A stretch of 64,000 nucleotides of DNA from a virus (lineage: Duplodnaviria; Heunggongvirae; Uroviricota; Caudoviricetes), in the IMG/VR virus record IMGVR_UViG_2778260994_000001; one strand, given 5' to 3'. Each line of letters starts with the position of its first letter. Position 1 is the first letter of the stretch. This document shows, piece by piece, positions 788-59,339 of the stretch. The translations under genes and the position numbers were made by a program. Below the pieces are notes generated by a model, which saw nothing but the letters and a program-made list of their open reading frames with translations, searched no databases and was not told the DNA's origin.

Positions 788-1012
788 TCACAACCAAGTA
801 ACGCTGCTGCCCGCAAAATGATCTAACGCCCATACGACCAGGGTGTCACCTCTGGAAAGCATACGCAAAACCTTTTTTAGCCCTGGGCGTTCAGCCTTTT
901 TGCCGCTCGCCTTGTCCTCAAAAATCAGCTCACATCTTGCGCTTTCAAGGGCATTTCGTTGCAAAGCAGTGTTTTGTTCATTTGTTGATACGCGTACATA
1001 GCCTATTAGCAT
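788..1012 (-). pseudogene. 5' remnant of a Cin-like DNA invertase (about 65 codons, then stop)
   Basis: MLIGYVRVSTNEQNTALQRNAL...GDTLVVW matches the Hin/Cin N-terminus, then diverges and terminates; convergent with the intact invertase. Confidence 0.7.
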
Positions 1013-1421: not shown

Positions 1422-1488
1422 GCAACAAATGACCGGTTGAGAAGTTACTTTGCATACCATTACCTCCTGACAACGTAGGAGGGAACTT

Positions 1489-1818
1489 GTGCTTGACACA
1501 CAGGAATTAGCTCCAGTTGCTATTGCGCTCCTGCTTTCAGTAATTGGTGGGATAGGCACGTTCCTGATGGATGTCCGAGACGGTCGCCAGTCTGGCAATT
1601 TGTTGGGATTGGTTACGGAGATCTTTGTTGCAGTGACAGCTGGCGCGGTGGCGTACCTATTGGGGCAACACGAGGGCTGGGAGTTATCAATTACGTACTT
1701 AATGGTAACGATAGCCAGCAATAACGGTCATGAGGTGATTTCAGGGATGAAACGAGTGAATATCGATAGCATTCTGAATGTTCTTACAAGTTTGGTGAAA
1801 AAGGGAGGCGGGAAATGA
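1489..1818 (+). CDS. lydA: Holin-like membrane protein (LydA-like)
   Basis: Two to three predicted TM segments; first gene of a dar-type operon by position. Confidence 0.45.
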   Translation: MLDTQELAPVAIALLLSVIGGIGTFLMDVRDGRQSGNLLGLVTEIFVAVTAGAVAYLLGQHEGWELSITYLMVTIASNNGHEVISGMKRVNIDSILNVLTSLVKKGGGK

Positions 1819-11087: not shown

Positions 11088-11109
11088 AACAAGTGATTTG
11101 CATTATCCT
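11088..11109 (+). promoter_or_regulatory. Putative late promoter for lyz
   Basis: aacaagtga-N7-tatcct; same architecture recurs upstream of other late genes. Confidence 0.35.
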
Positions 11110-11196: not shown

Positions 11197-11754
11197 ATGA
11201 AGGGAAAAACAGCCGCAGGAGGCGGTGCAATTTGCGCTATCGCGGTGATGATTACCATCGTGATGGGTAATGGCAATGTGCGAACCAACCAGGCGGGGCT
11301 TGAGCTGATTGGTAACGCTGAAGGTTGCCGACGTGATCCATACATGTGCCCGGCAGGGGTATGGACTGACGGGATCGGTAATACACACGGGGTAACGCCG
11401 GGTGTGCGAAAAACAGACCAGCAAATCGCCGCTGATTGGGAAAAGAATATCCTGATCGCTGAACGCTGTATTAATCAGCACTTCCGGGGCAAAGACATGC
11501 CCGATAATGCCTTCAGCGCAATGACAAGCGCGGCATTCAATATGGGATGCAATAGTTTACGGACCTACTACAGCAAAGCGCGAGGCATGCGAGTCGAAAC
11601 GTCCATCCACAAGTGGGCGCAGAAAGGGGAATGGGTGAATATGTGTAACCATCTCCCTGATTTTGTGAACAGTAACGGCGTCCCCCTGCCCGGGTTAAAG
11701 ATTCGCCGTGAAAAAGAACGCCAGCTTTGCCTGACGGGGCCGGTCAATGAATAA
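11197..11754 (+). CDS. lyz: SAR endolysin (T4-lysozyme-like), Lyz
   Basis: N-terminal Gly/Ala-rich weak TM (GGGAICAIAVMITIVMG), then lysozyme E...D...T catalytic region; 185 aa from internal ATG. Confidence 0.8.
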   Translation: MKGKTAAGGGAICAIAVMITIVMGNGNVRTNQAGLELIGNAEGCRRDPYMCPAGVWTDGIGNTHGVTPGVRKTDQQIAADWEKNILIAERCINQHFRGKDMPDNAFSAMTSAAFNMGCNSLRTYYSKARGMRVETSIHKWAQKGEWVNMCNHLPDFVNSNGVPLPGLKIRREKERQLCLTGPVNE

Positions 11755-14809: not shown

Positions 14810-14832
14810 AATTTAACACTAGTCACTTGTTA
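14810..14832 (-). promoter_or_regulatory. Putative late promoter for prt-pro
   Basis: Minus strand reads taacaagtga-N7-taaatt. Confidence 0.35.
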
Positions 14833-22084: not shown

Positions 22085-22329
22085 AAAAGCGATACTACAC
22101 AGTAAAGCATGGGACGCTACGAGCATTACAAGAGTTTGCTGACAAGCATAACGTTGAGGTGCGCAGGGAAGGGGGAAGTAAAGCTCTGCGCATGTACCGT
22201 CCGGACGGGAAATGGCGTACAGTCGTCGATTTCAAAACAAACAGTGTTCCCCAGGGCGTCCGCGACCGGGCATTCGAAGAATGGGAGCAGATCATCATAG
22301 ATAATGCATTGCTTCTCAATGCTGATTGA
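22081..22329 (+). CDS. lxc: Lxc-like small regulator
   Basis: 82 aa, overlaps upstream stop; position and size only. Confidence 0.35.
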   Translation: MKKRYYTVKHGTLRALQEFADKHNVEVRREGGSKALRMYRPDGKWRTVVDFKTNSVPQGVRDRAFEEWEQIIIDNALLLNAD

Positions 22330-22338
22330 GTTTTGTTG

Positions 22339-22363
22339 GCCCGGTTTGCACCGGGCGTTTCAC
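22339..22363 (+). terminator. Possible terminator after lxc
   Basis: Stem gcccggt / accgggc with 4-nt loop; weak U tract. Confidence 0.35.
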
Positions 22364-22411
22364 AAACAATCAACTGGTTTGTAGTTCCTGCGGCGAGATG
22401 AATTATTAATA

Positions 22412-23020
22412 TTATCGTGGTGCCGATGATGCGATAGCCTGTATGATGTTATCAATATCGTTATCGTTCAGCATGAATATAGGTACACCATTAGAGTTTG
22501 CATTTTTTTCAGTGCTCATCAAACAAAGCCCCTCATACATGCCGCGAGTTTTTTTGAAATTGGCGACTGATGGAGTGGTGTAATTTCCTTTAAAGTGCAT
22601 TCCGGCTGATTCATAAAAAGGAACCAAATCAGACTGGCAAATCAAAGCGACCTCATTTGGAAATGCAAGTATTTCTGCCAGTATATTACTTCCAAGTCCA
22701 TTACCACGATATTGCTCATATACATATATTTTATGACAGTACAACGGAAAATTTCCCGATGGATGTCCGAAGATTAAGGCGTATCCGAACAAGTTTTCTT
22801 CATTAGTAAAGCCCATAATGCGCAAATGACCGGCTCGGTAACACTCTTCAAAAACGTTAATTATGTAGCTTCTCGCTGCTTTCAGCTCCTCTTCTGTCGG
22901 GAACATCATCAACCCCATAAGCGATGGAGTATAGGCCAGATCCTGAAGAATCCCATTAGCTTCATTTTCGAAAATTAGCGGTAAGTGCGGTACAATTTCA
23001 TTTGCCGAGGTATTAGACAT
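22412..23020 (-). CDS. GNAT-family N-acetyltransferase, substrate unknown
   Basis: Acetyl-CoA motif QYRGNGLGSNIL; visibly AT-rich gene after a roughly 200-bp AT-rich spacer. Confidence 0.7.
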   Translation of the reverse strand: MSNTSANEIVPHLPLIFENEANGILQDLAYTPSLMGLMMFPTEEELKAARSYIINVFEECYRAGHLRIMGFTNEENLFGYALIFGHPSGNFPLYCHKIYVYEQYRGNGLGSNILAEILAFPNEVALICQSDLVPFYESAGMHFKGNYTTPSVANFKKTRGMYEGLCLMSTEKNANSNGVPIFMLNDNDIDNIIQAIASSAPR

Positions 23021-23218
23021 AGTATGGTGAGTCCTTTGTTTTCAAAGGACTCATGTTATCAGTGATAATCGTTTGTTGTAATAGTGTTGATAAAATAATT
23101 TTCTATTATGTAAGCAAGCTCATTTTTATGACGGGTAATGCAAAAAAAATAGAATCAAAAAACTAAAAAATAATAATTCATGGGGTTTTACACCATCAAA
23201 AGTCCCCACTATAAATTA

Positions 23219-23860
23219 TTAGAAATAATTATGCTTGCCTGTTAATACCCCTTTCGGCACTTTTTTTTGTTCCAGTGTCTGGGTACCCAGAATTATGTTA
23301 ATAAGTGGACTTAGTAACGATGGTTCCTGGCGGGCTTCAACTTCTCCAGCCATTGCCCTGATGTAGTCGGCGCTGGCAACGTTGTTGTATTCCGTCGCAA
23401 AGCAACATAGTAACGTCAGAACATGCTCTGTCGTTATTTCGCTCCAGTTGATGTTGAAAAATTCATCGCCTTTTTTATCGTGTTCGGAATCGAAGATGCT
23501 TTGGTGGAGGATGTATTTGCCGGATTCCTTGCGCGGTAACTTGATCGCTTTCTGGCGTTCCAGCTCCTTGTAAATCTGCATTGCTTCAATCAGTACCGGC
23601 CTGCCGTTCATGAAGGGATCGCGCAACCTTACACGCTGGCCAACTCGACCAGTAATAAAGCTGTTTTCCTCTTCCACCAGCACGATAAAACCTTTTTCCT
23701 CTTTCTCACGCAATTCGCGCAGCAACTGGAGTTCCATATCGCGGCGGCGTTCAGGGTAGCTGGTCCGCTCAGCCATTATCAGCTCGTTGTTGATCCATGC
23801 AGCAGTCATTGACGCCGGTTTGCCGACGCTCATCGAAACAACGCATATTTTCTTATCCAT
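23219..23860 (-). CDS. Hypothetical protein, Mat-like by position
   Basis: Track ORF starts at GTG; internal ATG at 23860 has an AGGGG RBS; lies between ref and the GNAT gene. Confidence 0.35.
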   Translation of the reverse strand: MDKKICVVSMSVGKPASMTAAWINNELIMAERTSYPERRRDMELQLLRELREKEEKGFIVLVEEENSFITGRVGQRVRLRDPFMNGRPVLIEAMQIYKELERQKAIKLPRKESGKYILHQSIFDSEHDKKGDEFFNINWSEITTEHVLTLLCCFATEYNNVASADYIRAMAGEVEARQEPSLLSPLINIILGTQTLEQKKVPKGVLTGKHNYF

Positions 23861-23989
23861 AGCGCCCCTACAAAAAAGAAAAGCCACCAGCGGCGGCTTA
23901 GCAATACAACAAAAGGTAGCGCCCGGTACTCAGACTGTGCCGTCCATGGAATATTTGAAAAGGGATCCATCCGTACCGGGCATGTGATG

Positions 23990-24011
23990 ATTCTGACTGA
24001 AGTCACTTGTC
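23990..24011 (-). promoter_or_regulatory. Putative late promoter reading into the mat-like and GNAT genes
   Basis: Minus strand reads gacaagtga-N7-cagaat. Confidence 0.3.
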
Positions 24012-24048
24012 AGTTGTCAATTATTTCAGATTAAAAATAATATATTTA

Positions 24049-25216: not shown

Positions 25217-26248
25217 CTAATCGCCATCTTCCAGCAGGCGTACCATTGCCCCCGTTTCACTATCCAGGTTACGGATATAGTTCATGACAATATTCACGTT
25301 GGTCCAGCCACCAGCTTGCATGATCTCCGGTATTGAAACTCCGGCGCGGGCCATATCTCGCGCGGCTCCGACACGGGCACTGTGTCCAGACCAGGCCAGG
25401 TATCTCTGACCAGAGTCATCCTTAGCGCCGTAAATCAATCGATGAGTTGCTTCAAAAATCCCTTCCAGGGCGCGAGTTGATAGCTGGCTGGTGGCAGATG
25501 GCGCGGCAACACCATTTTTTCTGACACGGCAAAACAAGTAGTTATTCGGATCATCAGCCACACCAGAGACAGAAATCCATCGCTCGACCAGTTTAGTTAC
25601 CCCCAGGCTAAGTGCCTTCTCTACACCTGCGGTGCTAACCAGCGTTTTCGTTCTGCCAATATGGATTAACATTCTCCCACCGTCAGTACGTGAGATATCT
25701 TTAACCCTGATCCTGGCAATTTCGGCTATACGTAACAGGGTGTTATAAGCAATCCCCAGAAATGCCAGATTACGTATATCCTGGCAGCGATCGCTATTTT
25801 CCATGAGTGAACGAACCTGGTCGAAATCAGTGCGTTCGAACGCCAGTGCCTGTTTTGCACGTTCACCGGCATCAACGTTTTCTTTTCGGATCCGTCGCAT
25901 GACCAGTGAAACAGCATTACTGTCACTTGGTCGTGGCAGCCCGGACCGACGATGAAGCATGTTTAGCTGGCCCAAATGTTGCTGGATAGTTTTTACTGCC
26001 AGACCGCGCGCCTGAAGATATAGAAGATAATCGCGAACATCTTCAGGTTCTGCGGGAAACCATTTCCGGTTATTCAACTTGCACCATGCCGCCCACGACC
26101 GGCAAACGGACAGAAGCATTTTCCAGGTATGCTCAGAAAACGCCTGGCGATCCCTGAACATGTCCATCAGATTCTTGCGAACCTCATCACTCGTTGCATC
26201 GACCGGTAATGCAGGCAAATTTTGGTGTACGGTCAGTAAATTGGACAT
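25217..26248 (-). CDS. cre: Cre tyrosine recombinase
   Basis: 343 aa beginning MSNLLTVHQNLPALPVDATSDEVRKNLMDMFRDRQAFSEHTWK; loxP about 420 bp upstream. Confidence 0.97.
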   Translation of the reverse strand: MSNLLTVHQNLPALPVDATSDEVRKNLMDMFRDRQAFSEHTWKMLLSVCRSWAAWCKLNNRKWFPAEPEDVRDYLLYLQARGLAVKTIQQHLGQLNMLHRRSGLPRPSDSNAVSLVMRRIRKENVDAGERAKQALAFERTDFDQVRSLMENSDRCQDIRNLAFLGIAYNTLLRIAEIARIRVKDISRTDGGRMLIHIGRTKTLVSTAGVEKALSLGVTKLVERWISVSGVADDPNNYLFCRVRKNGVAAPSATSQLSTRALEGIFEATHRLIYGAKDDSGQRYLAWSGHSARVGAARDMARAGVSIPEIMQAGGWTNVNIVMNYIRNLDSETGAMVRLLEDGD

Positions 26249-29762: not shown

Positions 29763-30955
29763 TAATCATCATCCCCGTATAGCTTGCGGGTAACTTCTTC
29801 GTCTTCCTCCTCGTCTTCGTCCAGGTCTTGTTCCAGCCATGGGTCGTTTGATACACCTTCAGTATCAACATCTCCATAACCGCCTGTATCAACGATATCG
29901 GCGATTTCTTCCCTACGCTGCTCAATCCACAATGCGGCATCGGCGCGGCGGTTGGCGGCCCGTTCTCGCGCAACTTTGTCCAGATCTTCAAGAGAAGGGC
30001 CACCGACGGCTGTTTGCCTTTCCTCATCATCGGTATTGGTCTTCGGAGCACGCAGATCGGCTTTGATTTGCTCCAGCATCAGGGGCGGCACTTTCCCGCC
30101 ATGCGCCTCGATGAATTCAGCTGCTTCCAGCACTGACCAGTTATTTTCACGCTTTCGTTCGTATGCCAGCTTAACAATGCCAGCTTGCCCCATAGACAAA
30201 GCGTGCTTTTCCGCCTCCCGGCTTTCTTTTCGATAGTTATTCCGGATGCTGTAAATGGTGTTGATCAGGCTGCTTATCTGCGCGGAACAGCTGTTTAGCA
30301 TGCTCGCGATACGGTATTCAGGCGGAGTACCTTCATCATCGTCCTTTTGCTGATCGCGCATTTCCTGCACCAGGCGAATACACGTATCCCTGGCGTTCTC
30401 CAGCATAAGGAGATGAGAAAGAGACTTTTCAAGAAGAGTGGTTTCCAGAACATCGGCCCCGGACCGACGCAACATAGCGCGCGCGGCCTTCCGCGCTTCA
30501 ACGTTATCTATCAGGTAATCGCCAGCTTCGAATTCAAAGCGTTCACCATCATCATCCAGGGTGTCGCGTTCCAGGCGATCACGTAAGGTCCGGTGGGCGC
30601 GGGTGATCACGTCATGATCATCTGAACGATCATTTATGCGCTTATTTTGGCGCTTCGCATTCTCGACTGCGGCACTGACAACGGCATTAACTCTCTGTTT
30701 TTCCGCTATTTCAGCCGCAATATGATCACCTGCATGTTGATCATTAGAGTGATCAATGATCATGCTTTTTAGTGGCTTCCTGACTGGCTTATTTGGCTTG
30801 CGGCTGTCCGCAGTCCTGGTGTCTTCTTTGAAGGCACGGAGATAACGACGTGCGGTATTAGGGTTAAGATTAAACTCGGCGGCATACTGTGCGATGGTGT
30901 AACCACCATCTCGCGCCAGGCGAGCAAAATTCTTTTTGTGATCGTCCCAGGTCAC
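29762..30955 (-). CDS. pacA: Terminase small / pac-recognition subunit PacA
   Basis: 397 aa; contains the pac site; acidic C-terminus. Confidence 0.85.
30605..30761. other. pac packaging site (3 + 4 clustered GATC hexamers)
   Basis: GATC at 30605, 30616, 30628 and at 30724, 30739, 30751, 30758, all inside pacA. Confidence 0.7.
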
Positions 30956-30990: not shown

Positions 30991-31012
30991 AGGGTAACGA
31001 AAGTCACATGTC
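30991..31012 (-). promoter_or_regulatory. Putative late promoter for pacA
   Basis: Minus strand reads gacatgtga-N7-taccct. Confidence 0.3.
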
Positions 31013-31040: not shown

Positions 31041-31493
31041 TCAGATACGTGCGGATGTGGCATTACCGTAATGACGGTGCTGACGGGCCACCTTATTGAA
31101 AAGTTGACGCGCCATTACCCAAGGCTGGTGCTCCCGGCGTTCCTTTTCGTCCTGCGTCATATAGAGTTCGTTCTGGAGTTTTTCATCAAACCGGCGCGGA
31201 GCGCGGCTACGGCGAAAGAATTCAGGATTCAGAGAGTGGATCTGAAATCTACGTGGGCGTGTACTGTCATCAATCAAAACAGACGAATACTTAGACACAG
31301 CGATAGCCTTTAAGCGCAGATAAACATCGCGCTTATCGACATCCAGATGCGGGTATTCCTTTTCAAGAATTGCTGCGAGTTCTTTCGCTGATAGAAGAGA
31401 TTTAGTGCGGATCATGTAATCCGCAATCTCGTACGATGTTATTCGTGAGTGTTTTATTTCCATGAAGTGGCGTCCCTGCCAGTTAAGTAACAT
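31041..31493 (-). CDS. lpa: Lpa, late promoter activator
   Basis: 150 aa, upstream of pacA with an operator immediately upstream; position and size. Confidence 0.65.
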   Translation of the reverse strand: MLLNWQGRHFMEIKHSRITSYEIADYMIRTKSLLSAKELAAILEKEYPHLDVDKRDVYLRLKAIAVSKYSSVLIDDSTRPRRFQIHSLNPEFFRRSRAPRRFDEKLQNELYMTQDEKERREHQPWVMARQLFNKVARQHRHYGNATSARI

Positions 31494-34917: not shown

Positions 34918-35354
34918 CCAGAATAATTGAGTAACGACTATTATTTAACCAGCAAAGTAACTTTTAATTTTTTTTCTTCTCCCATTGATTTTTGTGCACA
35001 GCTTATCTGCCTTGCCGTGCGCAGAATCAACTTTTTTCTTCCTGATTTATCCACAAAGTTATGCACTTGCAAGAGGGCCATTTTCTAAATATTGTGATGT
35101 TTCACAAATGAAATGAATTTTGATTAATGAAGATAAGGAGAAAATTTGAGATGCAATCATGACGTTAATAGATAGGGTCTGCATTACAGACCCCACCCGC
35201 ATCAAGGAATTAGCCGTTCCCTGATGTTGTTCCGAAAACATGTGCCGTAAGCTCACGTTAACGACTTTCTTTCACCGAATCCAACTATATAAGGGTTGGG
35301 TTTCTACGTCAACGTGAGCAAGTGCTCCTTTACATTTGACAAGGAACCACCTTA

Positions 35355-35921: not shown

Positions 35922-36854
35922 TCATACTTCACCCTCGCTTGTATCGCCAGCATCCACCAACGGCAATAAAGCCATGGCCATCTTATGAACCAACAGAGCA
36001 TCGATAATGCCAAGCGTATGCCCCGGCTTAATGTTTAATGCCGCCTCAAGGTGACACCTTTCTAGGTCACTTTTCTCGGCTTGTTTATGATGATCTGGCG
36101 TAATAACGTCGCCCAAAACACGGCTAATTCTTTCTCGTAATTGCTGGGTGCCAGCACACTTGACCGCTGTATCGTGGAGGCGGTTAACCAGTTCGCGATA
36201 AACATGCGGCTTAATTCGGATACGTTCACCGGGGACGCCCTTTCCTTTCGCTGGCACCGAACTATCCGGAATGTCCGGATAGTTGCCAGCCTCGTAAGCT
36301 ACCCGCAGCCAGTGCATGAATGTTTCAGTGGACACACAACCACAGTCCACATCGATTTTCCCGCGTTGCTGTTCCAGCCATTGCCCAAAATCCAACCTGT
36401 AAGTCTTACTTTCAAGTTCATCACCATTGAACTCGACTTTCTGCGACGCTATGAGAGCTGATTCGTATTGTTCGCGAGTGACAACTGACTGGTATTCATC
36501 GCTATCAAGGTCACCAATTGGAAGCTCAATCTCACAACAAAAATTGCGCCCAAAGAAAGTGTCTTTTTTGTGGTCTGAGCCAAAAGCAAAAGTCGCGCAT
36601 GGTGCCATTAAATTGACACTGGGTAGGTAACAATAACTCATTCCATCAGGCCACCCGCCGCACTTAGGCAGCTCCTTCACTAACAAGTCGATAAGCTTCA
36701 TTTTTTTATCATCTTTGCAAGCCGCCAAAGCCATTTGGGCAAGTGCCAATACTTCATCTGCCGTATATCCAGCACCGTGACCATACATTTCGATACGGGA
36801 AATAGTCTCTGATATACGCTCTTCAGTGATTCTGGTCATTTCTTTTTGCGCCAT
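35922..36854 (-). CDS. Hypothetical protein
   Basis: 310-aa ORF with ATG start. Confidence 0.5.
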   Translation of the reverse strand: MAQKEMTRITEERISETISRIEMYGHGAGYTADEVLALAQMALAACKDDKKMKLIDLLVKELPKCGGWPDGMSYCYLPSVNLMAPCATFAFGSDHKKDTFFGRNFCCEIELPIGDLDSDEYQSVVTREQYESALIASQKVEFNGDELESKTYRLDFGQWLEQQRGKIDVDCGCVSTETFMHWLRVAYEAGNYPDIPDSSVPAKGKGVPGERIRIKPHVYRELVNRLHDTAVKCAGTQQLRERISRVLGDVITPDHHKQAEKSDLERCHLEAALNIKPGHTLGIIDALLVHKMAMALLPLVDAGDTSEGEV

Positions 36855-37210
36855 TTCTTTTCACATTCCTTAGTCCATTTTTCAATGTTCATTTTGGCAA
36901 TATCAGTCATTCCATCACCTAAGAAATACTTTCTCCGGTATGTCTTGCACTTAAAACACACTACAACAGCCACCAGCCAGAAAATAAAAGGCCATACAGC
37001 AATACCAACGACAGCCGCGATAAAGCCCAATATCCATAAATGAAGCTCTCCAACTTCTGTTTCCGGCAATATTCTTAAAGAATTAAACAGCAGGCTGAAC
37101 GAATGGTCGTATGCATTGGCAGTATAAGACATGCAATCCATATAATTAAAGTCATAGCCTGCGGCTGCCGCCCATAATGGGCGGTCAAGAAAATGTTTTA
37201 GTGTCATCAT
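36836..37210 (-). CDS. Hypothetical membrane protein
   Basis: Hydrophobic core segment, Lys-rich C-terminus. Confidence 0.45.
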   Translation of the reverse strand: MMTLKHFLDRPLWAAAAGYDFNYMDCMSYTANAYDHSFSLLFNSLRILPETEVGELHLWILGFIAAVVGIAVWPFIFWLVAVVVCFKCKTYRRKYFLGDGMTDIAKMNIEKWTKECEKKWRKKK

Positions 37211-37216
37211 ATTAAT

Positions 37217-37510
37217 TTAAGGTTCAGACCAGTTATCTTCAATAGCAATGCTTAATCTTTGTAGCCATTCTGCTAATTTCAGCATTGCTTCTCTTTCGCT
37301 TAAACCACGAGGAAAATCATCAAGCGATATTGTTGGCTTGAAGCCCCCGTAATTATCCATTTCAACGGTCAGATTTTGCTCCAGTACGGTATTCCTTACG
37401 CGGCTATTGTGGCGAAGCAAATATACTGAACGTGATTTATTGGTTTTGTGGTCGAGCTGATATTCGGTAAGTATCATCTGGCTTTTGCCATGACTATTAC
37501 CTCTCCACAT
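37217..37510 (-). CDS. Hypothetical protein
   Basis: Start moved to internal ATG with GAGG RBS; track ORF began at TTG. Confidence 0.4.
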   Translation of the reverse strand: MWRGNSHGKSQMILTEYQLDHKTNKSRSVYLLRHNSRVRNTVLEQNLTVEMDNYGGFKPTISLDDFPRGLSEREAMLKLAEWLQRLSIAIEDNWSEP

Positions 37511-37520
37511 ACTTACCTCA

Positions 37521-37640
37521 CTTAATAAAACAACTCCATGCGTAGTTGATGATTTTTTCCCACGTAATATAAATCTGCACTCCGGCAGTAAAACCAAAGC
37601 CAACAATTGCTGAAAAAATCAAAACATTTACTTTTGACAT
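37521..37640 (-). CDS. Candidate small membrane peptide (39 aa), below the ORF-track cutoff
   Basis: MSKVNVLIFSAIVGFGFTAGVQIYITWEKIINYAWSCFIK; stop overlaps the RBS of the next gene. Confidence 0.3.
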
Positions 37641-37688
37641 TATAAATTTTCTCTCGGTGTCGTAGGTGATAGCACCATAATTGATAAT

Positions 37689-37940
37689 TTAGTGAGTTAG
37701 CAGTTCCATTTTTTGGATGATTTCCGCATGAGTATCATCGTTATCAACACTTAACTCGTTTAATGCCTCTCGCACCACATCAACTTCTTCTGGTTGGAAG
37801 AAATCATCTCGGTAGTCACCAAATAGAACCGAAACAAGCCTGCCACCAGCAACATCAAGATTGGCGCTAACAGGTGGCTCTTTACCATCCTCAAATTCGA
37901 CTACAAAAGTTATTTTTCCCATCGTTACCACCAGCGACAA
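37689..37940 (-). CDS. Hypothetical acidic protein
   Basis: 83-aa ORF. Confidence 0.4.
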   Translation of the reverse strand: MSLVVTMGKITFVVEFEDGKEPPVSANLDVAGGRLVSVLFGDYRDDFFQPEEVDVVREALNELSVDNDDTHAEIIQKMELLTH

Positions 37941-38004
37941 ATTGAATACAAACCCAGTGCTGCCGCCATCACAATTCCTACCGTGGTGAATGCTTCAGGC
38001 CAGC

Positions 38005-38889
38005 TCATTGATTCACCTCCTGCGGCGGTTCTGGTAGCGGCATCCAGTGTGACGGTTTCCACGACGCACCAGGAATTATCCACCCATCATTAGCGTCAGG
38101 ATGCCCCGGGATGTAAGTAGCCCATTTCATTCGCCAGTCACCTTTCCTGTCAAACTCCACGGCAACAAGAACGGCTGTTTTGGTATTCGGCATTCGCTCA
38201 CTACAGCTTATCCAACCATCCGGAGTTACCGGAACTTGCGGAATGGCTGTCTGCTCTCGAACGTCATTAGGCGCTATAGGTTCTGCTGCCAACTGACTGG
38301 CATATTTGTTAATGGTAACGATAAGCTCTTGCTCAGCCTCATCCAGACAATCACCGATACCTCGCCTGTCACCGTCAAAATCATCGAAATCGGCACGAAT
38401 CTTGGCAACCTTCTGGATTGCGGACAACACCTCACTAGGAATTACCGGATAGTTGGTTGACGTTTCCGCGATTTCCCGAAAATTATTGGTTGACGAATTC
38501 TTGTTTTCCCGAAAGTTTCCGGACTGAAGCATGGCGGCGCGGCAGGCGTTCCAGCCATCTGCGTAACAATCTCTGTGTGTCTTGAAATATGTCACCGCCC
38601 TTGGCACATCGTTTACGTCTATTTCATCCGGCACAACCGGCGCGGGTGAGTCAGCATAAACAGGAATAACGTCCGGTTGCTCTTTATTGCTTTCATCCGT
38701 TAAAGCCCAGAATAATTTCCCGGCCGGATGTTTGAAAATATAAGCAACTGGTTCTGCTTCCAGTGATGCCAGCGCAATTTTGTATACTTCCAGATCCATT
38801 TGTGCAGTTACTAAATCAGGATAACGATCCATAACCGTTATATTGCGCTTAATCATCTCTATTAATTGTTCTTTAGTAAAAGTGGTCAT
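38005..38889 (-). CDS. Prophage protein with DUF551-like C-terminus
   Basis: C-terminal W/P-rich segment (WISCSERMP...HWMPLPEPP); N-terminus shares GWNACRAAMLQ with 39099-39494. Confidence 0.5.
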   Translation of the reverse strand: MTTFTKEQLIEMIKRNITVMDRYPDLVTAQMDLEVYKIALASLEAEPVAYIFKHPAGKLFWALTDESNKEQPDVIPVYADSPAPVVPDEIDVNDVPRAVTYFKTHRDCYADGWNACRAAMLQSGNFRENKNSSTNNFREIAETSTNYPVIPSEVLSAIQKVAKIRADFDDFDGDRRGIGDCLDEAEQELIVTINKYASQLAAEPIAPNDVREQTAIPQVPVTPDGWISCSERMPNTKTAVLVAVEFDRKGDWRMKWATYIPGHPDANDGWIIPGASWKPSHWMPLPEPPQEVNQ

Positions 38890-38899
38890 TCGTTATGCC

Positions 38900-39130
38900 T
38901 CAATACACAAAATCTGTTTTAAATTCATGGTTACATTCTGGGCAGCATGTTTCGTAACCTTTTATTTCTTCACATGCCTGTTTTGCTCCAGAAAATTCCC
39001 AGAAATCAGCATCGCAAAGCAGATCGAAATTGTGGCCGCATTTTGGGCATTCAGTATCAAGTGATAAACTCCAGTAAGCAGGTGTGTTTTTGTCCATATC
39101 ACTCTCCTTTCCCCTGAAGCATAGCGGCAC
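38900..39130 (-). CDS. Small zinc-ribbon protein
   Basis: CPKCGH...CCPECNH motifs. Confidence 0.45.
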   Translation of the reverse strand: MPLCFRGKESDMDKNTPAYWSLSLDTECPKCGHNFDLLCDADFWEFSGAKQACEEIKGYETCCPECNHEFKTDFVY

Positions 39131-39494
39131 GGCAGGCGTTCCAGCCTCTCACCTCTGCAATAGCGGCAACAGCATCAACCGCGTACATGCTAAGAGGATT
39201 AGGCATTGGTTTTTCTTCCGGTACTACTTGCGCTGGAGGGGCGGCGTAAATACCCTCTATCACTAAATGTTTGCGCTCAAAATCATCTGGCTCTCGATGA
39301 TATACGTAACTCCAATCACCAAGGTTATCATTGCGCCTGCAACGGAAACCTATCGGCTCGACTTCCAGCGCTGCCAGAGCAATTCGTGCCAGTTCTTCCG
39401 CTTCTTCTGCTGGCAGTACAACGTTGCTACCAGGTCCGTATGTTTCGCGCCACTGCTTGATTGTCAGTAGTCGCTCTTTGGTAATAGTGATCAT
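39099..39494 (-). CDS. Hypothetical protein, paralog of the N-terminal region of 38005-38889
   Basis: Shared ITKE.L and GWNACRAAMLQ segments; ATGA overlap with the upstream gene. Confidence 0.5.
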   Translation of the reverse strand: MITITKERLLTIKQWRETYGPGSNVVLPAEEAEELARIALAALEVEPIGFRCRRNDNLGDWSYVYHREPDDFERKHLVIEGIYAAPPAQVVPEEKPMPNPLSMYAVDAVAAIAEVRGWNACRAAMLQGKGE

Positions 39495-40006
39495 GCCGCG
39501 TTTCCTTCTTTCTTATTAACAATTACACCGTCATATATTTCATTAAGGTGCCCTCTCAACTCCATGCGCCTTAATGCAGATAACATGTAATCGCATTCAA
39601 CCTGCTTATTTCCAGTAAATGGCTTATCGTCAGGATTCCCCCAACAGCAATTACCCTTGGGCCACCCATGTACTTTCCGTACTCTTCCGTTAACAACGTG
39701 AAGTAATCCCCAGCCAGGTGGTAAATCCTCAATTGAAATAATTCCCGGCTCACTAATAAAGAATCGCCAGTCGCCCATTCCAAGAGACGGATTTTTACGA
39801 AAACGCTTTTTTCTATCTGCTAACAAGTCAGCACGAGAACACTTCGCTTCTATCAGGCATGATGCTGAATTTCTGAATCCCATAGCATCTGGCTGTTCTC
39901 CGGTACTGGTTACAGCTATAAAGCGGTCATGAAAACAAACCTTGAACCCGTTGCGCTTAAGGAACTTATACGCAATCTGACAGAGTTCGCGGTGTGTTAA
40001 CGCCAT
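39491..40006 (-). CDS. Hypothetical protein (possible PD-(D/E)xK nuclease-like)
   Basis: Start at internal ATG with AAGGAGAG RBS; weak resemblance only. Confidence 0.4.
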   Translation of the reverse strand: MALTHRELCQIAYKFLKRNGFKVCFHDRFIAVTSTGEQPDAMGFRNSASCLIEAKCSRADLLADRKKRFRKNPSLGMGDWRFFISEPGIISIEDLPPGWGLLHVVNGRVRKVHGWPKGNCCWGNPDDKPFTGNKQVECDYMLSALRRMELRGHLNEIYDGVIVNKKEGNAA

Positions 40007-40368
40007 ATCACTCTCCTTTAGTGCGCAAGTGGTTTTTCCAGCGGTTTTGCGCCGCGCTGGGCTTTTTGCAAAAACCACAATCCATCATCCCGTAATATTT
40101 CATCAACCCCATCCGTCGGTTGCTGAGTCTCACCCACTGCCAGACGCCAGGAGCGTTTCTACGAACTAACAGAATCTTTGCTTTACGGTTTTTCATCGTT
40201 TTGCTCTCCTGCGTTTCTTTGCTTCGCGTCGTGCAGCCGCAATACCGGTATGGCGGCGCTTTGGTGCCGGGATGATGTTGTCAGCCATCAGGACATGCGG
40301 CTTCGCAATTAGCGCAGAAGCCCAAAAACGAGTCGGGTACGGTAACAAGCCGATACATGCCACACGCA

Positions 40369-41022
40369 TTACTCACCTCCTTTGATGCGAATGCCAGCTG
40401 CGCTTGCTGATTCTTCATATGCGCGTTTAGCAGCGTTAAGGATTGCTGCCAGTGGCGTATAGCCGCCATCCATTCGGATTGTGTTGTGGATGCCAGCCAT
40501 TGTGTCGCGCAATTTGCTGTGGCTAGCAGACAGTTCTGCTATGCGCTTCTCTGCGGATTCCAGCGCTGCAACCAATTCGTCTACAGTTCCGGCAGCTTGC
40601 AGTGCGTAATCGGTAATAGCCATCTCATGATCAATTTCAGTACCGTTCTCATTCGTTGAGGTGATAGCAAAATAATCAGAGTCGATTTCGTTATCAGCTA
40701 AGTGGCGTAGCGTATCGGCAACAAGCTGACCGTTTTCGATTAACAGCTTCCCTACCGTTAGCGCAATATCCTCGTTCTCCTGATCGCGGCGTTTTATGTA
40801 TTGCTGGTTTCTTTCCCGTTCATCCAGTAGTGCCAAAGCAACCTTTGGATTAAAGGCGGCAATAAATTCAGCATTGTTTTTCAGAACGTGTTGCGCAATG
40901 GCCTGACTACTTAGTCGGACCTCATAACCACGTGCGCCACGGTGTGGTTTATATGAGTCCCAGTCTCCCCACGTTGCTTTCTCTGCCGCCTCACGCAGTG
41001 CCTGATAGTCAATCTTGCTCAT
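40369..41022 (-). CDS. Ead/Ea22-like prophage protein
   Basis: N-terminal DYQALREAAEKAT shared with the neighbouring paralog. Confidence 0.5.
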   Translation of the reverse strand: MSKIDYQALREAAEKATWGDWDSYKPHRGARGYEVRLSSQAIAQHVLKNNAEFIAAFNPKVALALLDERERNQQYIKRRDQENEDIALTVGKLLIENGQLVADTLRHLADNEIDSDYFAITSTNENGTEIDHEMAITDYALQAAGTVDELVAALESAEKRIAELSASHSKLRDTMAGIHNTIRMDGGYTPLAAILNAAKRAYEESASAAGIRIKGGE

Positions 41023-41720
41023 TGGATGACTCCTTTACGAAGCTGTTCGGCGATATCTTCGAGAACGCCATCAGAGAATGAGCGATCAAAATGGCTTTCC
41101 GGCGCATTAGCCATAAACTCAGTAGAGGTAAGAATCATCCGGGCAATATCCGCGGCGTTCTTCGCAGTATCATCAATAAAACCAGCTTTCCAGGCAGCCA
41201 ACATTCTGTTCGCCACAAAATAAGCGCCTTCCTTGCGTGCTTCAGTCCTCCCTTCAGCCAGAAAAGCATCGGTTGCTGGGGTTTCGCTGTGGTGCAGGGC
41301 ATCGTTGATAATCATTGCAGCAACTCCGGCCTGCCCTGCATCCGTGACCGACACATGCTCAAGAGTTACGGCCATTGCGTGTTTCAGCCCAGCGTTCTCT
41401 GCCACCAGCGCAGCGAGATTAGTCTCAAGCTCTGAAATTCGGCACGTGGCATCAATATTTGTGTCCTCCAAGCACTTAATTTCACCAAGCAGCTCCAGTG
41501 CAACCTTTGGGTTGAACGCGGCAACATGACGAGCGTTGTTCTCTGCATTTTTCTGTCCATCAAAGCCGGTCCATTTGATAACGTCTTCACATCGTTCATC
41601 ACCGGGCGTGTGCACCGCATAAGTACCAGTATCCGTCGAAATAAATGCGACCCATTCGTCTGGTGTTGCCTTTTCTGCCGCCTCACGCAGTACCTGATAG
41701 TCAATTGTCATTCTCGCCAT
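41019..41720 (-). CDS. Ead/Ea22-like prophage protein, paralog
   Basis: N-terminal DYQVLREAAEKAT; internal AAFNPKVALELL shared with the neighbour. Confidence 0.5.
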   Translation of the reverse strand: MARMTIDYQVLREAAEKATPDEWVAFISTDTGTYAVHTPGDERCEDVIKWTGFDGQKNAENNARHVAAFNPKVALELLGEIKCLEDTNIDATCRISELETNLAALVAENAGLKHAMAVTLEHVSVTDAGQAGVAAMIINDALHHSETPATDAFLAEGRTEARKEGAYFVANRMLAAWKAGFIDDTAKNAADIARMILTSTEFMANAPESHFDRSFSDGVLEDIAEQLRKGVIQ

Positions 41721-42352
41721 CCTTCACAGTTGTAATCACTACAGCCTTCAAAATCATATGGGCTGTACTGCCAGGTGATTTTTCCGCAATGCGGACAATT
41801 CCAACGCACCTTCCCGCTTCGCGACTTCTTTCTTCTGTTCTGCTCTTTCAACCAGTCAGGCATGACCAAACCTGCGCCCTGAACCATTGTTCTGCGGTTA
41901 AAGTTATTGATATTGAACGTCCGGCGCTTTGCTGCATCAGCAATGGAAAATGGCAACCAAACTATTCCTGGTTCGTTTTTGTTGGCGACGCTAAAGATGG
42001 TCGCTTTACTGAAGTCATCTGTTGGCAATCCACCGTGTTGAAGCCAGTAAACATCGTTGCCGTTCCAGCTACCTTTTTTGTAGGCCACATACGCAGTGCA
42101 ATCTGACTCAATCAGGCTTTCTGTAGGGATGTACTGGCAATCAACGTGCCACACAGCCATTGCATCCACACTATCGGCACAAACAGGCTGATCGATATCT
42201 CGCCCACAACTCCAGGCTTTTTGGGCTTCTTCCAGCGTGTAAACATGAGCGCGATCGATATCAGAACTGTAACCATTGCCGTTATGGCAATGGAATGAGG
42301 CGTTATTACCCACAGTTTCACGCAAGCACATCATGTAAAAACGGTTACTCAC
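41708..42352 (-). CDS. Hypothetical Cys-rich protein
   Basis: C-terminal CPHCG...C...C cluster. Confidence 0.45.
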   Translation of the reverse strand: MSNRFYMMCLRETVGNNASFHCHNGNGYSSDIDRAHVYTLEEAQKAWSCGRDIDQPVCADSVDAMAVWHVDCQYIPTESLIESDCTAYVAYKKGSWNGNDVYWLQHGGLPTDDFSKATIFSVANKNEPGIVWLPFSIADAAKRRTFNINNFNRRTMVQGAGLVMPDWLKEQNRRKKSRSGKVRWNCPHCGKITWQYSPYDFEGCSDYNCEGWRE

Positions 42353-42560
42353 TGGATGCCTCCCAGCAAATTTGTCTTATATAAGAACTGTTAACGCGCT
42401 TTACTTTCCCGTCGAACTCCAGTTTCTTTAGACGACGCAAAACGTATGCCGTTTTGAGTGTGCGATATTTATCCCTAAGCCAGTTGGTCACGACGTAAGT
42501 CATACAGCGCCCGTGTTCTTCCAACACCCGAACTATTTCTTCGTCGGTTGGCTTGCTCAT
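42345..42560 (-). CDS. Small hypothetical protein
   Basis: 71-aa ORF in operon context. Confidence 0.35.
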   Translation of the reverse strand: MSKPTDEEIVRVLEEHGRCMTYVVTNWLRDKYRTLKTAYVLRRLKKLEFDGKVKRVNSSYIRQICWEASSE

Positions 42561-42778
42561 TTTGTCGCTCCTTCAGCTTTCTCTACTTTCGCTGCCATGA
42601 TTTCCAGCTTTTGTGCTGCCGATGCCGCTAACCTGTGAAATTCTTCATCTGTTTCAACTGGAATTGGTACAAACCTGACACCAATTTGAGCAAGGCTATG
42701 CGCCATTTCGAGACTTGCTCTTAACTCTGCTGGGGATGCTTTATTCAGGCCGACTTCCTCACAAATAACAGATTGCAT
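42557..42778 (-). CDS. Small hypothetical protein
   Basis: 73-aa ORF in operon context. Confidence 0.35.
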   Translation of the reverse strand: MQSVICEEVGLNKASPAELRASLEMAHSLAQIGVRFVPIPVETDEEFHRLAASAAQKLEIMAAKVEKAEGATK

Positions 42779-42787
42779 ACGCTCGCC

Positions 42788-57266: not shown

Positions 57267-57342
57267 TGGTGGCCCCTACCGGACTTGAACCGGTGACCGT
57301 GCGATTATGAGTCGCCAGCTCTAACCACTGAGCTAAAGGGCC
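57267..57342 (-). tRNA. tRNA with CAU anticodon (Ile2 lysidine-type, or Met)
   Basis: Cloverleaf by eye: acceptor GGCCCTT, D-arm GCTCAGTGGTTAGAGC, anticodon loop CTCATAA, T-arm GGTTCAAGTCC, 3' CCA. Confidence 0.85.
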
Positions 57343-59186: not shown

Positions 59187-59261
59187 GGTGCCGATTAACG
59201 GACTCGAACCGCTGACATCCTGCTTACAAGGCAGGCGCTCTACCAACTGAGCTAAACCGGC
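59186..59261 (-). tRNA. tRNA-Thr (UGU)
   Basis: Acceptor GCCGGTT, D-arm GCTCAGTTGGTAGAGC, anticodon loop CTTGTAA, T-arm GGTTCGAGTCC, CCA. Confidence 0.9.
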
Positions 59262-59263
59262 AT

Positions 59264-59339
59264 TGGCGATGGTGGATGGATTTGAACCATCGACCCGTTG
59301 ATTAACAGTCAACCGCTCTAACCGCTGAGCTACACCATC
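59264..59339 (-). tRNA. tRNA-Asn (GUU)
   Basis: Perfect 7-bp acceptor GATGGTG/CACCATC, anticodon loop CTGTTAA, T-arm GGTTCAAATCC, CCA; 2 nt from trnT. Confidence 0.9.

Follow-up and report, generated by a model that had tools for sequence, protein, structure and literature searches.

The closest described counterparts of the recurring element analysed here are the late promoters of phage P1, which are reportedly to be credited to Guidolin et al. 1989, Lehnherr et al. 1991 and 1992, and Lobocka et al. 2004. In the Ogr/Delta-dependent late promoters of P2/P4 and the C-dependent late promoters of Mu, an activator site takes the place of a poor -35 element or makes up for it, giving late timing. 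The activators and boxes of those systems are unrelated to those of P1, which also needs the host protein SspA. Eleven "late promoters" are annotated in the P1 record (AF234172/NC_005856), the typical annotation unit consisting of a 9-bp "-22 region", 4 nt and a -10 hexamer. The consensus extracted from them is rAC AAGTGACTT n4 TAnnnT, in which AAGTGACTT is the 9-bp "-22 region"; GenBank features and secondary citations served as our source for the published consensus. The activator, Lpa, is described in the part of PMC1891329 that cites Hansen et al. 2003 as a sequence-specific DNA-binding protein working with SspA, which is associated with the host RNA polymerase. The late genes are Lpa- and SspA-dependent (PMC8198154, PMC8201110), and an LP23 reporter serves as an Lpa-dependent marker of lytic growth (PMC8546580).

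The window (the whole stretch of viral DNA that was analysed, 64,000 nt) shares ∼98% identity with phage P1 (over 10 kb) and aligns colinearly with AF234172, in reversed orientation. The main differences between the two are a module at 22327-23274, an extra segment of 6.5 kb at 36297-42819 and several smaller replacements. According to a megablast map of the window onto P1, eight of the 11 annotated late promoters lie inside the window, which also contains an intact lpa gene. The full late-transcription wiring of P1 is retained in this P1-like plasmid, and the element is probably a functional phage, not a decayed plasmid. The features discussed below are collected in Table 1.

Table 1. Promoter sites, candidate regulatory elements and genes in the window and in related elements
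Feature	Sequence	Position	Strand	Description
LPdar	window	1439-1460	+	GAG, box AAGTTACTT (1442-1450), spacer TGCA, -10 TACCAT (1455-1460)
LPlyz	window	11088-11109	+	flank AAC, box AAGTGATTT (11091-11099), spacer GCAT, -10 TATCCT (11104-11109)
LPpro	window	14810-14831	-	AAC, box AAGTGACTA (14820-14828), spacer GTGT, -10 TAAATT (14810-14815)
GNAT acetyltransferase ORF	window	22412-23020	-	202 aa; Pfam Acetyltransf_10 and Acetyltransf_1 above cut-offs
Terminator-like element after mat	window	23156-23221	-	long hairpin 23171-23221 and U6AGU6 23156-23170; starts at mat stop codon
Intrinsic-terminator-like hairpin, mat leader	window	23871-23899	-	AAGCCGCCGCTGGTGGCTT plus TTCTTTTTTG; between LPmat and ATG 23860
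LPmat	window	23990-24011	-	GAC, box AAGTGACTT (24000-24008), spacer CAGT, -10 CAGAAT (23990-23995)
LPpac	window	30991-31012	-	GAC, box ATGTGACTT (31001-31009), spacer TCGT, -10 TACCCT (30991-30996)
lpa, late promoter activator gene	window	31041-31493	-	150 aa, intact; 99.3% identical to P1 Lpa (tblastn)
LPhot	window	34940-34963	-	box AAGTTACTT (34955-34963), 9-nt spacer, -10 AATAAT (34940-34945); upstream of hot
LPpmgL	window	49489-49507	-	near-palindromic box of LP26 on the other strand (TAGTCATTT), spacer GTTG, -10 ATTATT; divergent partner of LP26
LP26	window	49496-49517	+	AAC, box AAATGACTA (49499-49507), spacer GCGG, -10 TAGAAT (49512-49517)
Gene 7 internal late-promoter-like site (candidate)	window	51201-51222	+	AAC AAGTGACTG GTGA TAACCT; codons 16-23
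mat leader	JK004	39272-39410	-	
mat leader	D6 (L007)	∼25964-26105	-	
mat leader	contigs L126-L161	∼860-1000	+	
D6 box sites	D6	19216(+), 25230(-), 27736(-), 38124(-), 45500(-), 54133(-), 67402(-), 72109(-)		AAATCACAnACT

A sequence-only reading of the window had pointed out an element of the form (A/G)ACA(A/T)(G/A)TGA-N7-TANNNT at five places, and had compared it with the Lpa-dependent late promoters of P1. The described architecture is present at all five, and these sites are LPlyz, LPpro, LPmat, LPpac and LP26 of AF234172, base for base. All five carry a box of the AAGTNACTT type, a 9-bp near-palindrome, with the same 9-mers as in P1. We take the recurring motif to represent late promoters that depend on Lpa, in a phage-plasmid of the P1 type, with a probability of about 0.93. 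The motif set is already published and annotated in GenBank for phage P1, and its recovery here is an ordinary rediscovery. Whole annotated features of 19–24 bp are identical in sequence between P1 and the window, and the neighbouring genes, orientation, spacing and activator gene are alike. There is no difference of substance, the -10 of LPpmgL reading AATATT in P1 and ATTATT in the window.

Comparison with the annotated units refines the proposed pattern in several respects. It captures a real element, moved 3 nt upstream of the published box: RAC is the flank, A(A/T)(G/A)TGA corresponds to the first six bases of the box, and the last three box bases fall inside "N7". The TANNNT part holds at four of the listed sites and breaks down at the site upstream of mat, where the -10 is CAGAAT. 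This site is a real member of the set despite failing the pattern, judging from its identity to the P1 feature "late promoter LPmat; former LP2", including the CAGAAT hexamer. The prt-pro site, previously given as 23 nt, is 22 nt long. The list of five was also incomplete, LPdar, LPhot and LPpmgL in the window having been missed.

A TAnnnT-type -10 follows the box after exactly 4 bp at LPlyz, LPpro, LPpac, LP26 and LPdar, and CAGAAT has the same spacing at LPmat. The sites upstream of lyz, prt, mat, pacA, gene 26 and lydA are all oriented towards the gene, with the next start codon 19–130 nt away (lyz ATG at 11198, pacA GTG at 30955, gene 26 ATG at 49547). LPpro precedes prt-pro (portal and head processing), LP26 precedes 26-25-7-24-6-5 (baseplate and tail), and LPpac, which adjoins the lpa terminator hairpin, precedes pacA-pacB. 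The operon downstream of LPdar is lydA-lydB-hdf-darA; this promoter is identical to P1 over ∼100 nt and scores 21.0 bits with the weight matrix described below. LPhot is identical to P1 over 100 nt and has an unusual 9-nt spacer that is also present in P1, while the matrix score of LPpmgL is low (10.8 bits); the late-promoter status of these two is taken from the P1 annotation.

The absence of a -35 element, noted previously, applies to six of the seven best-scoring sites, which have at most four of six matches to TTGACA. The best match is 2–3 of 6 at LPdar, LPlyz, LPpro, LPpac and LP26, and 4 of 6 at the candidate site in gene 7 (spacers of 15–19 nt). LPmat is the exception. A perfect TTGACA is located at 24015-24020(-), 19 nt from its -10, and is annotated in P1 as part of a sigma-70 promoter, Pmat, with the -10 common to both. 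With a non-consensus -10 and a perfect -35, LPmat may also fire without Lpa.

The mat leader (23860-23989, minus strand; ∼110–130 nt), apparently non-coding, contains a long 5' stem-loop, followed by the terminator-like hairpin ∼20–30 nt before the mat ATG. A late-type promoter followed by a leader is found at mat in the window, P1, and the JK004-like and D6-like contigs, and the same layout of hairpin and U-run recurs across 21 distinct sequences from the P1-like, JK004-like and D6-like elements that were compared. RNAalifold, applied to a mixed alignment of P1-like and D6-like sequences, gave the 5' stem with covariation, 10 of its 13 predicted pairs having changed on both sides, mostly between the two clades. 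The terminator is absent from this consensus because loop-length differences shift the 3' arms out of register; the terminators, which differ in their loops among relatives, were instead read from individual sequences. The leader has no match to an Rfam family. A tentative proposal is that it constitutes an attenuator requiring an antiterminator, or a discrete late small RNA. If so, the attenuator or small RNA would gate the expression of mat and any read-through into the GNAT cargo.

The leader overlaps the 5' end of mat as annotated in P1. The P1-annotated start of Mat corresponds to window position 23971, 111 nt further upstream than position 23860, at the equivalent of which the Mat homologues of JK004 and D6 start (MDKKICVV...). 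The N-terminal extension of P1 Mat is out of frame in the window, due to a 1-nt difference in a G-run near 23878 (GGGG vs GGGGG), and it is affected by indels of 1–2 nt among relatives. Because of this frameshift, the indels and the downstream starts in JK004 and D6, the N-terminal 37 codons of the P1-annotated Mat are probably not coding.

Downstream of LPmat, the type III res-mod genes of P1 are swapped for the ∼950-bp module mentioned above, which comprises the GNAT gene and a variant Mat C-terminus and is complete in at least 19 P1-like plasmids (E. coli, E. fergusonii, Salmonella). The earlier placement of the GNAT cargo in a late transcription unit does not follow from the motif. A transcript from LPmat would have to pass two terminator-like elements before reaching the GNAT start codon, and the gene could therefore belong to a late unit solely via read-through or antitermination. 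We lean towards an arrangement in which GNAT relies for its expression mostly on signals of its own within the mat-GNAT spacer, for example in the prophage state, and most transcripts from LPmat end earlier. The terminator-like hairpin and T-run in the mat leader are conserved in relatives, and a second long hairpin followed by U6AGU6 comes directly after the mat stop; this hairpin is present in both the minimum-free-energy and the centroid structures (z = -3.3 for the 231-nt spacer). Both hairpins are putative terminators, which tempers this argument, and P1 is suspected of encoding antiterminators (PMC10695390). The GC content of the spacer (∼31%) and module (31–41% together, compared to ∼47–53% for the backbone) suggests an imported cassette, and the spacer carries a pair of sigma-70-like hexamers; no strong promoter was seen in the spacer, however, the best match being 9 of 12. 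The arrangement in P1, where the next gene, res, is convergent and mat is therefore monocistronic, also speaks for separate GNAT signals. Against them, the GNAT gene is on the same strand as mat, 198 nt past its stop.

Two further features are located immediately upstream of the GNAT gene. A perfect 10-bp hairpin, GAGTCCTTTG-AAAA-CAAAGGACTC (23029-23052, minus strand), stops 8 nt short of the GNAT ATG; the only Shine-Dalgarno-like AAGGA is sequestered in this hairpin, which may control translation. A match abutting the ATG (23019-23040, minus strand; AACAAAGGACTCACCATACTAT) was rejected as a late promoter: it reaches 17.8 bits in a low-information matrix built from three sites only, scores <8 bits in the full matrix, has a -10 that overlaps the start codon, and coincides with the 3' arm of the 10-bp hairpin.

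For the motif as a whole, we considered whether it might recur by chance, or mark ordinary sigma-70 promoters that share an AT-rich upstream word and have no dedicated activator. We regard this as very improbable. The pattern RACAWRTGA-N7-TANNNT has five exact matches in the window, compared to 0.09 expected (100 dinucleotide shuffles, none of which reaches five). These are LPlyz, LPpro, LPpac, LP26 and a site in gene 7 that had not been listed. The window-wide matrix search that had been suggested was carried out using a 22-nt weight matrix built from the P1 late promoters, with 200 dinucleotide shuffles as the control. It gave seven matches of ≥20 bits, compared to a mean of 0.04 in the shuffles (about 0.04–0.07 expected by chance per window). 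These seven are the five sites listed originally, LPdar and the gene 7 site; the next match has 15 bits and the rest ≤11. Six of the seven are intergenic by the P1 annotation, in a window of which only ∼9% is outside long ORFs, and the motif is thus not distributed as it would be if it were equally frequent in coding regions. The intergenic status of LPdar and LPlyz was taken from the P1 annotation, as a crude ORF caller gave spurious or over-extended ORFs.

In a leave-one-out analysis, each P1 promoter was still among the top 7–11 of ∼190,000 positions. With a matrix derived only from the three P1 promoters outside the window, five known sites are among the seven best matches in the window; its top ten include every one of the seven sites of ≥20 bits, six of them annotated promoters and the other the gene 7 site.

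What does favour a chance origin is the behaviour of the parts. The 8-mer core ACAWRTGA alone is not enriched in the window (11 vs 10.3 expected), nor is the 9-bp box alone (AAGTNACTT with one mismatch; 26 vs 22.5 expected). A matrix covering the box only gave 15 matches of ≥11 bits, compared to ∼7 expected; once the candidate in gene 7 and the eight boxes known from the annotation are set aside, the six leftover matches are consistent with chance. Since core and box alone occur at chance frequency, the signal is the composite of box, fixed spacing and -10, and a single box without a -10 says little. This composite is at least 50-fold enriched. The full -35/-10 pair at LPmat is the other point in favour of ordinary sigma-70 promoters; at the remaining sites no -35 match exceeds 4 of 6, and the five annotated promoters among them reach 2–3 of 6. 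The box is, in addition, assigned to Lpa in the P1 literature, and the relatives described next further argue for a dedicated activator.

Cronobacter phage JK004 has an Lpa that is 67% identical to that of the window (63–67% across the JK004-like set). The P1 matrix detects matches in JK004 in the spacers that precede the orthologues of gene 23, R, 26, pacA, prt, lyz, pmgC and mat. In pairwise alignments, the box, spacing and -10 are conserved inside otherwise diverged spacers. The site orthologous to LPlyz is kept while its flanks have diverged, the orthologue of LPpro reads CAC AAGTGACCA GTGT TAAATT and that of LP26 reads AAC AAGTGACTC AGCA TACAAT, and sites orthologous to LPmat are found upstream of mat in the JK004-like contigs. 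The late promoters of the JK004-like phages thus have the same architecture as those of P1 (AC, 9-bp box, 4 nt, -10) at orthologous positions, with single-base variants of the box (e.g. AAGCGACTT, AAGTGACCA and GTGTGACTT) and diverged flanks. Maintenance of these positions upstream of orthologous late genes, with the surrounding sequence diverged, is not expected of chance matches. The flanking bases "AC" contribute 1.3–1.4 bits, equal to the box positions, and are found at every JK004 site; with these bases included, the conserved element in effect measures 11 bp and is asymmetric. The asymmetric flank may give direction to an otherwise palindromic box.

A search for Lpa found three loci in genome contigs, and the best 80 viral-contig matches were all 99% identical; the diverged Lpa loci were obtained by separate queries with the JK004 and D6 proteins. 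LPpac is identical in the best 80 P1-like IMG/VR contigs. In four diverged IMG/VR contigs, the sequence downstream of lpa is (A/G)AC GTGTGACTT GCG(T/C) TACCCT, retaining the LPpac core GTGACTT, the 4-nt spacing and TACCCT.

Phage D6, in contrast, has an Lpa of only 31% identity, and its late-gene -10 hexamers are preceded, at a distance of a few bp, by a different box, AAATCACAnACT. This reading of D6 is our own analysis of its sequence. The D6 box occurs at eight oriented intergenic sites, upstream of prt, R, gene 23, gene 7, mat, pmgB, ddrA and the lysin gene, and its pattern has 11 matches, compared to 3.4 in shuffles. The P1 matrix finds nothing above background in D6 save one site, at 71093(+), which scores 23.7 bits and is not in front of a late gene. 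D6 and P1 are thus alike in having an activator-type box a few bp upstream of the -10 before like late genes, and differ in the sequence of the box, which suggests that the box and Lpa have changed together in D6. A box that is kept with a conserved Lpa and altered with a diverged one is expected of a site recognized by the activator, not by RNA polymerase, and is difficult to reconcile with ordinary sigma-70 promoters.

That the box is instead an operator of another phage regulator, such as the repressor C1, and marks repression and not activation, is hardly credible: near-palindromic boxes are typical of many operators and C1 operators do occur near several P1 late genes, but those of P1 are separate 17-bp features elsewhere (Omat, Ossb, O26, Olpa), none of them on a -22 box, the fixed 4-bp distance to the -10 with the box in place of a -35 is the geometry of an activator site, and the binding protein named in the literature is Lpa.

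Taking the motif to be the Lpa-dependent late promoter, the mechanism in the window would be that described for P1. Lpa would be produced from an early promoter repressed by C1. The Lpa box would comprise 11–12 bp, (A/G)AC plus AAGTGACTT, with its near-palindromic 9-bp part centred ∼22 bp upstream of the start, and is followed after exactly 4 bp by a TAnnnT-type -10, normally without a -35. According to the literature, Lpa bound to the box, together with SspA, would enable sigma-70 RNA polymerase to start at otherwise inactive promoters. Late in lytic growth, Lpa would thus switch on the units for lysis (lyz, lydAB-dar), head (prt-pro), packaging (pacAB), and baseplate and tail (26-25-7-24-6-5), as well as the mat, hot and pmgL units. 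Binding by Lpa, the need for SspA, the start sites and the late timing are carried over to the window from studies of P1. Knowledge of P1 is unchanged by the present finding, the value of which is practical only: the weight matrix is usable for annotating the late units of P1-like phage-plasmids. The mat leader, the gene 7 site and the box change in D6 could be of modest interest to P1 specialists, since antitermination in P1 is suspected but unproven.

The gene 7 site lies 46 nt inside the gene, matches the pattern exactly and scores 20.9 bits, equal to LPdar. It is identical in P1 (76780-76801, minus strand), where it has no annotation, and it is weakly kept in JK004, where the counterpart scores 7.9 bits. 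In D6, gene 7 does not adjoin gene 25 and is served by a late-type promoter of its own, and a unit boundary at this place is therefore not implausible. We put the chance that the site is functional at about one in three; the idea that it is a twelfth Lpa promoter is accordingly as tentative as that of a regulatory mat leader, from which it is separate. Such a promoter could split the 26-25-7-24-6-5 operon.

Several weaker matches were observed elsewhere. A late-promoter-like site, AACGAGTGAATATCGATAGCAT, with 15 bits is found at 1751-1772(+), in the 3' end of lydA and 43 nt upstream of lydB; JK004 has no matrix match of ≥9 bits to this lydB-upstream site. A box-like word, AACAAATGACC, at 1423-1433(+) lies 5 nt upstream of the LPdar motif and 9 nt upstream of its 9-bp box. 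It has no -10 of its own, and may represent either a coincidental match or an additional half-site for Lpa. Just beyond the region covered by the window, ppfA/mlp is preceded by a weak late-promoter-like site without late promoter annotation, both in P1 (63962-63983, minus strand; 11.4 bits) and in JK004 (23653-23674, minus strand; 15.4 bits).

The extra 6.5-kb segment, which P1 lacks, sits in the pmgT-pmgV region at the point corresponding to P1 position 85182. All of its ORFs are on the minus strand, with a DUF551 protein and two Ead/Ea22-like proteins among the products, and it is typical variable accessory cargo. Three tRNA genes of the window (57270-57342, 59189-59261 and 59267-59339, all on the minus strand) correspond to the P1 tRNA cluster.
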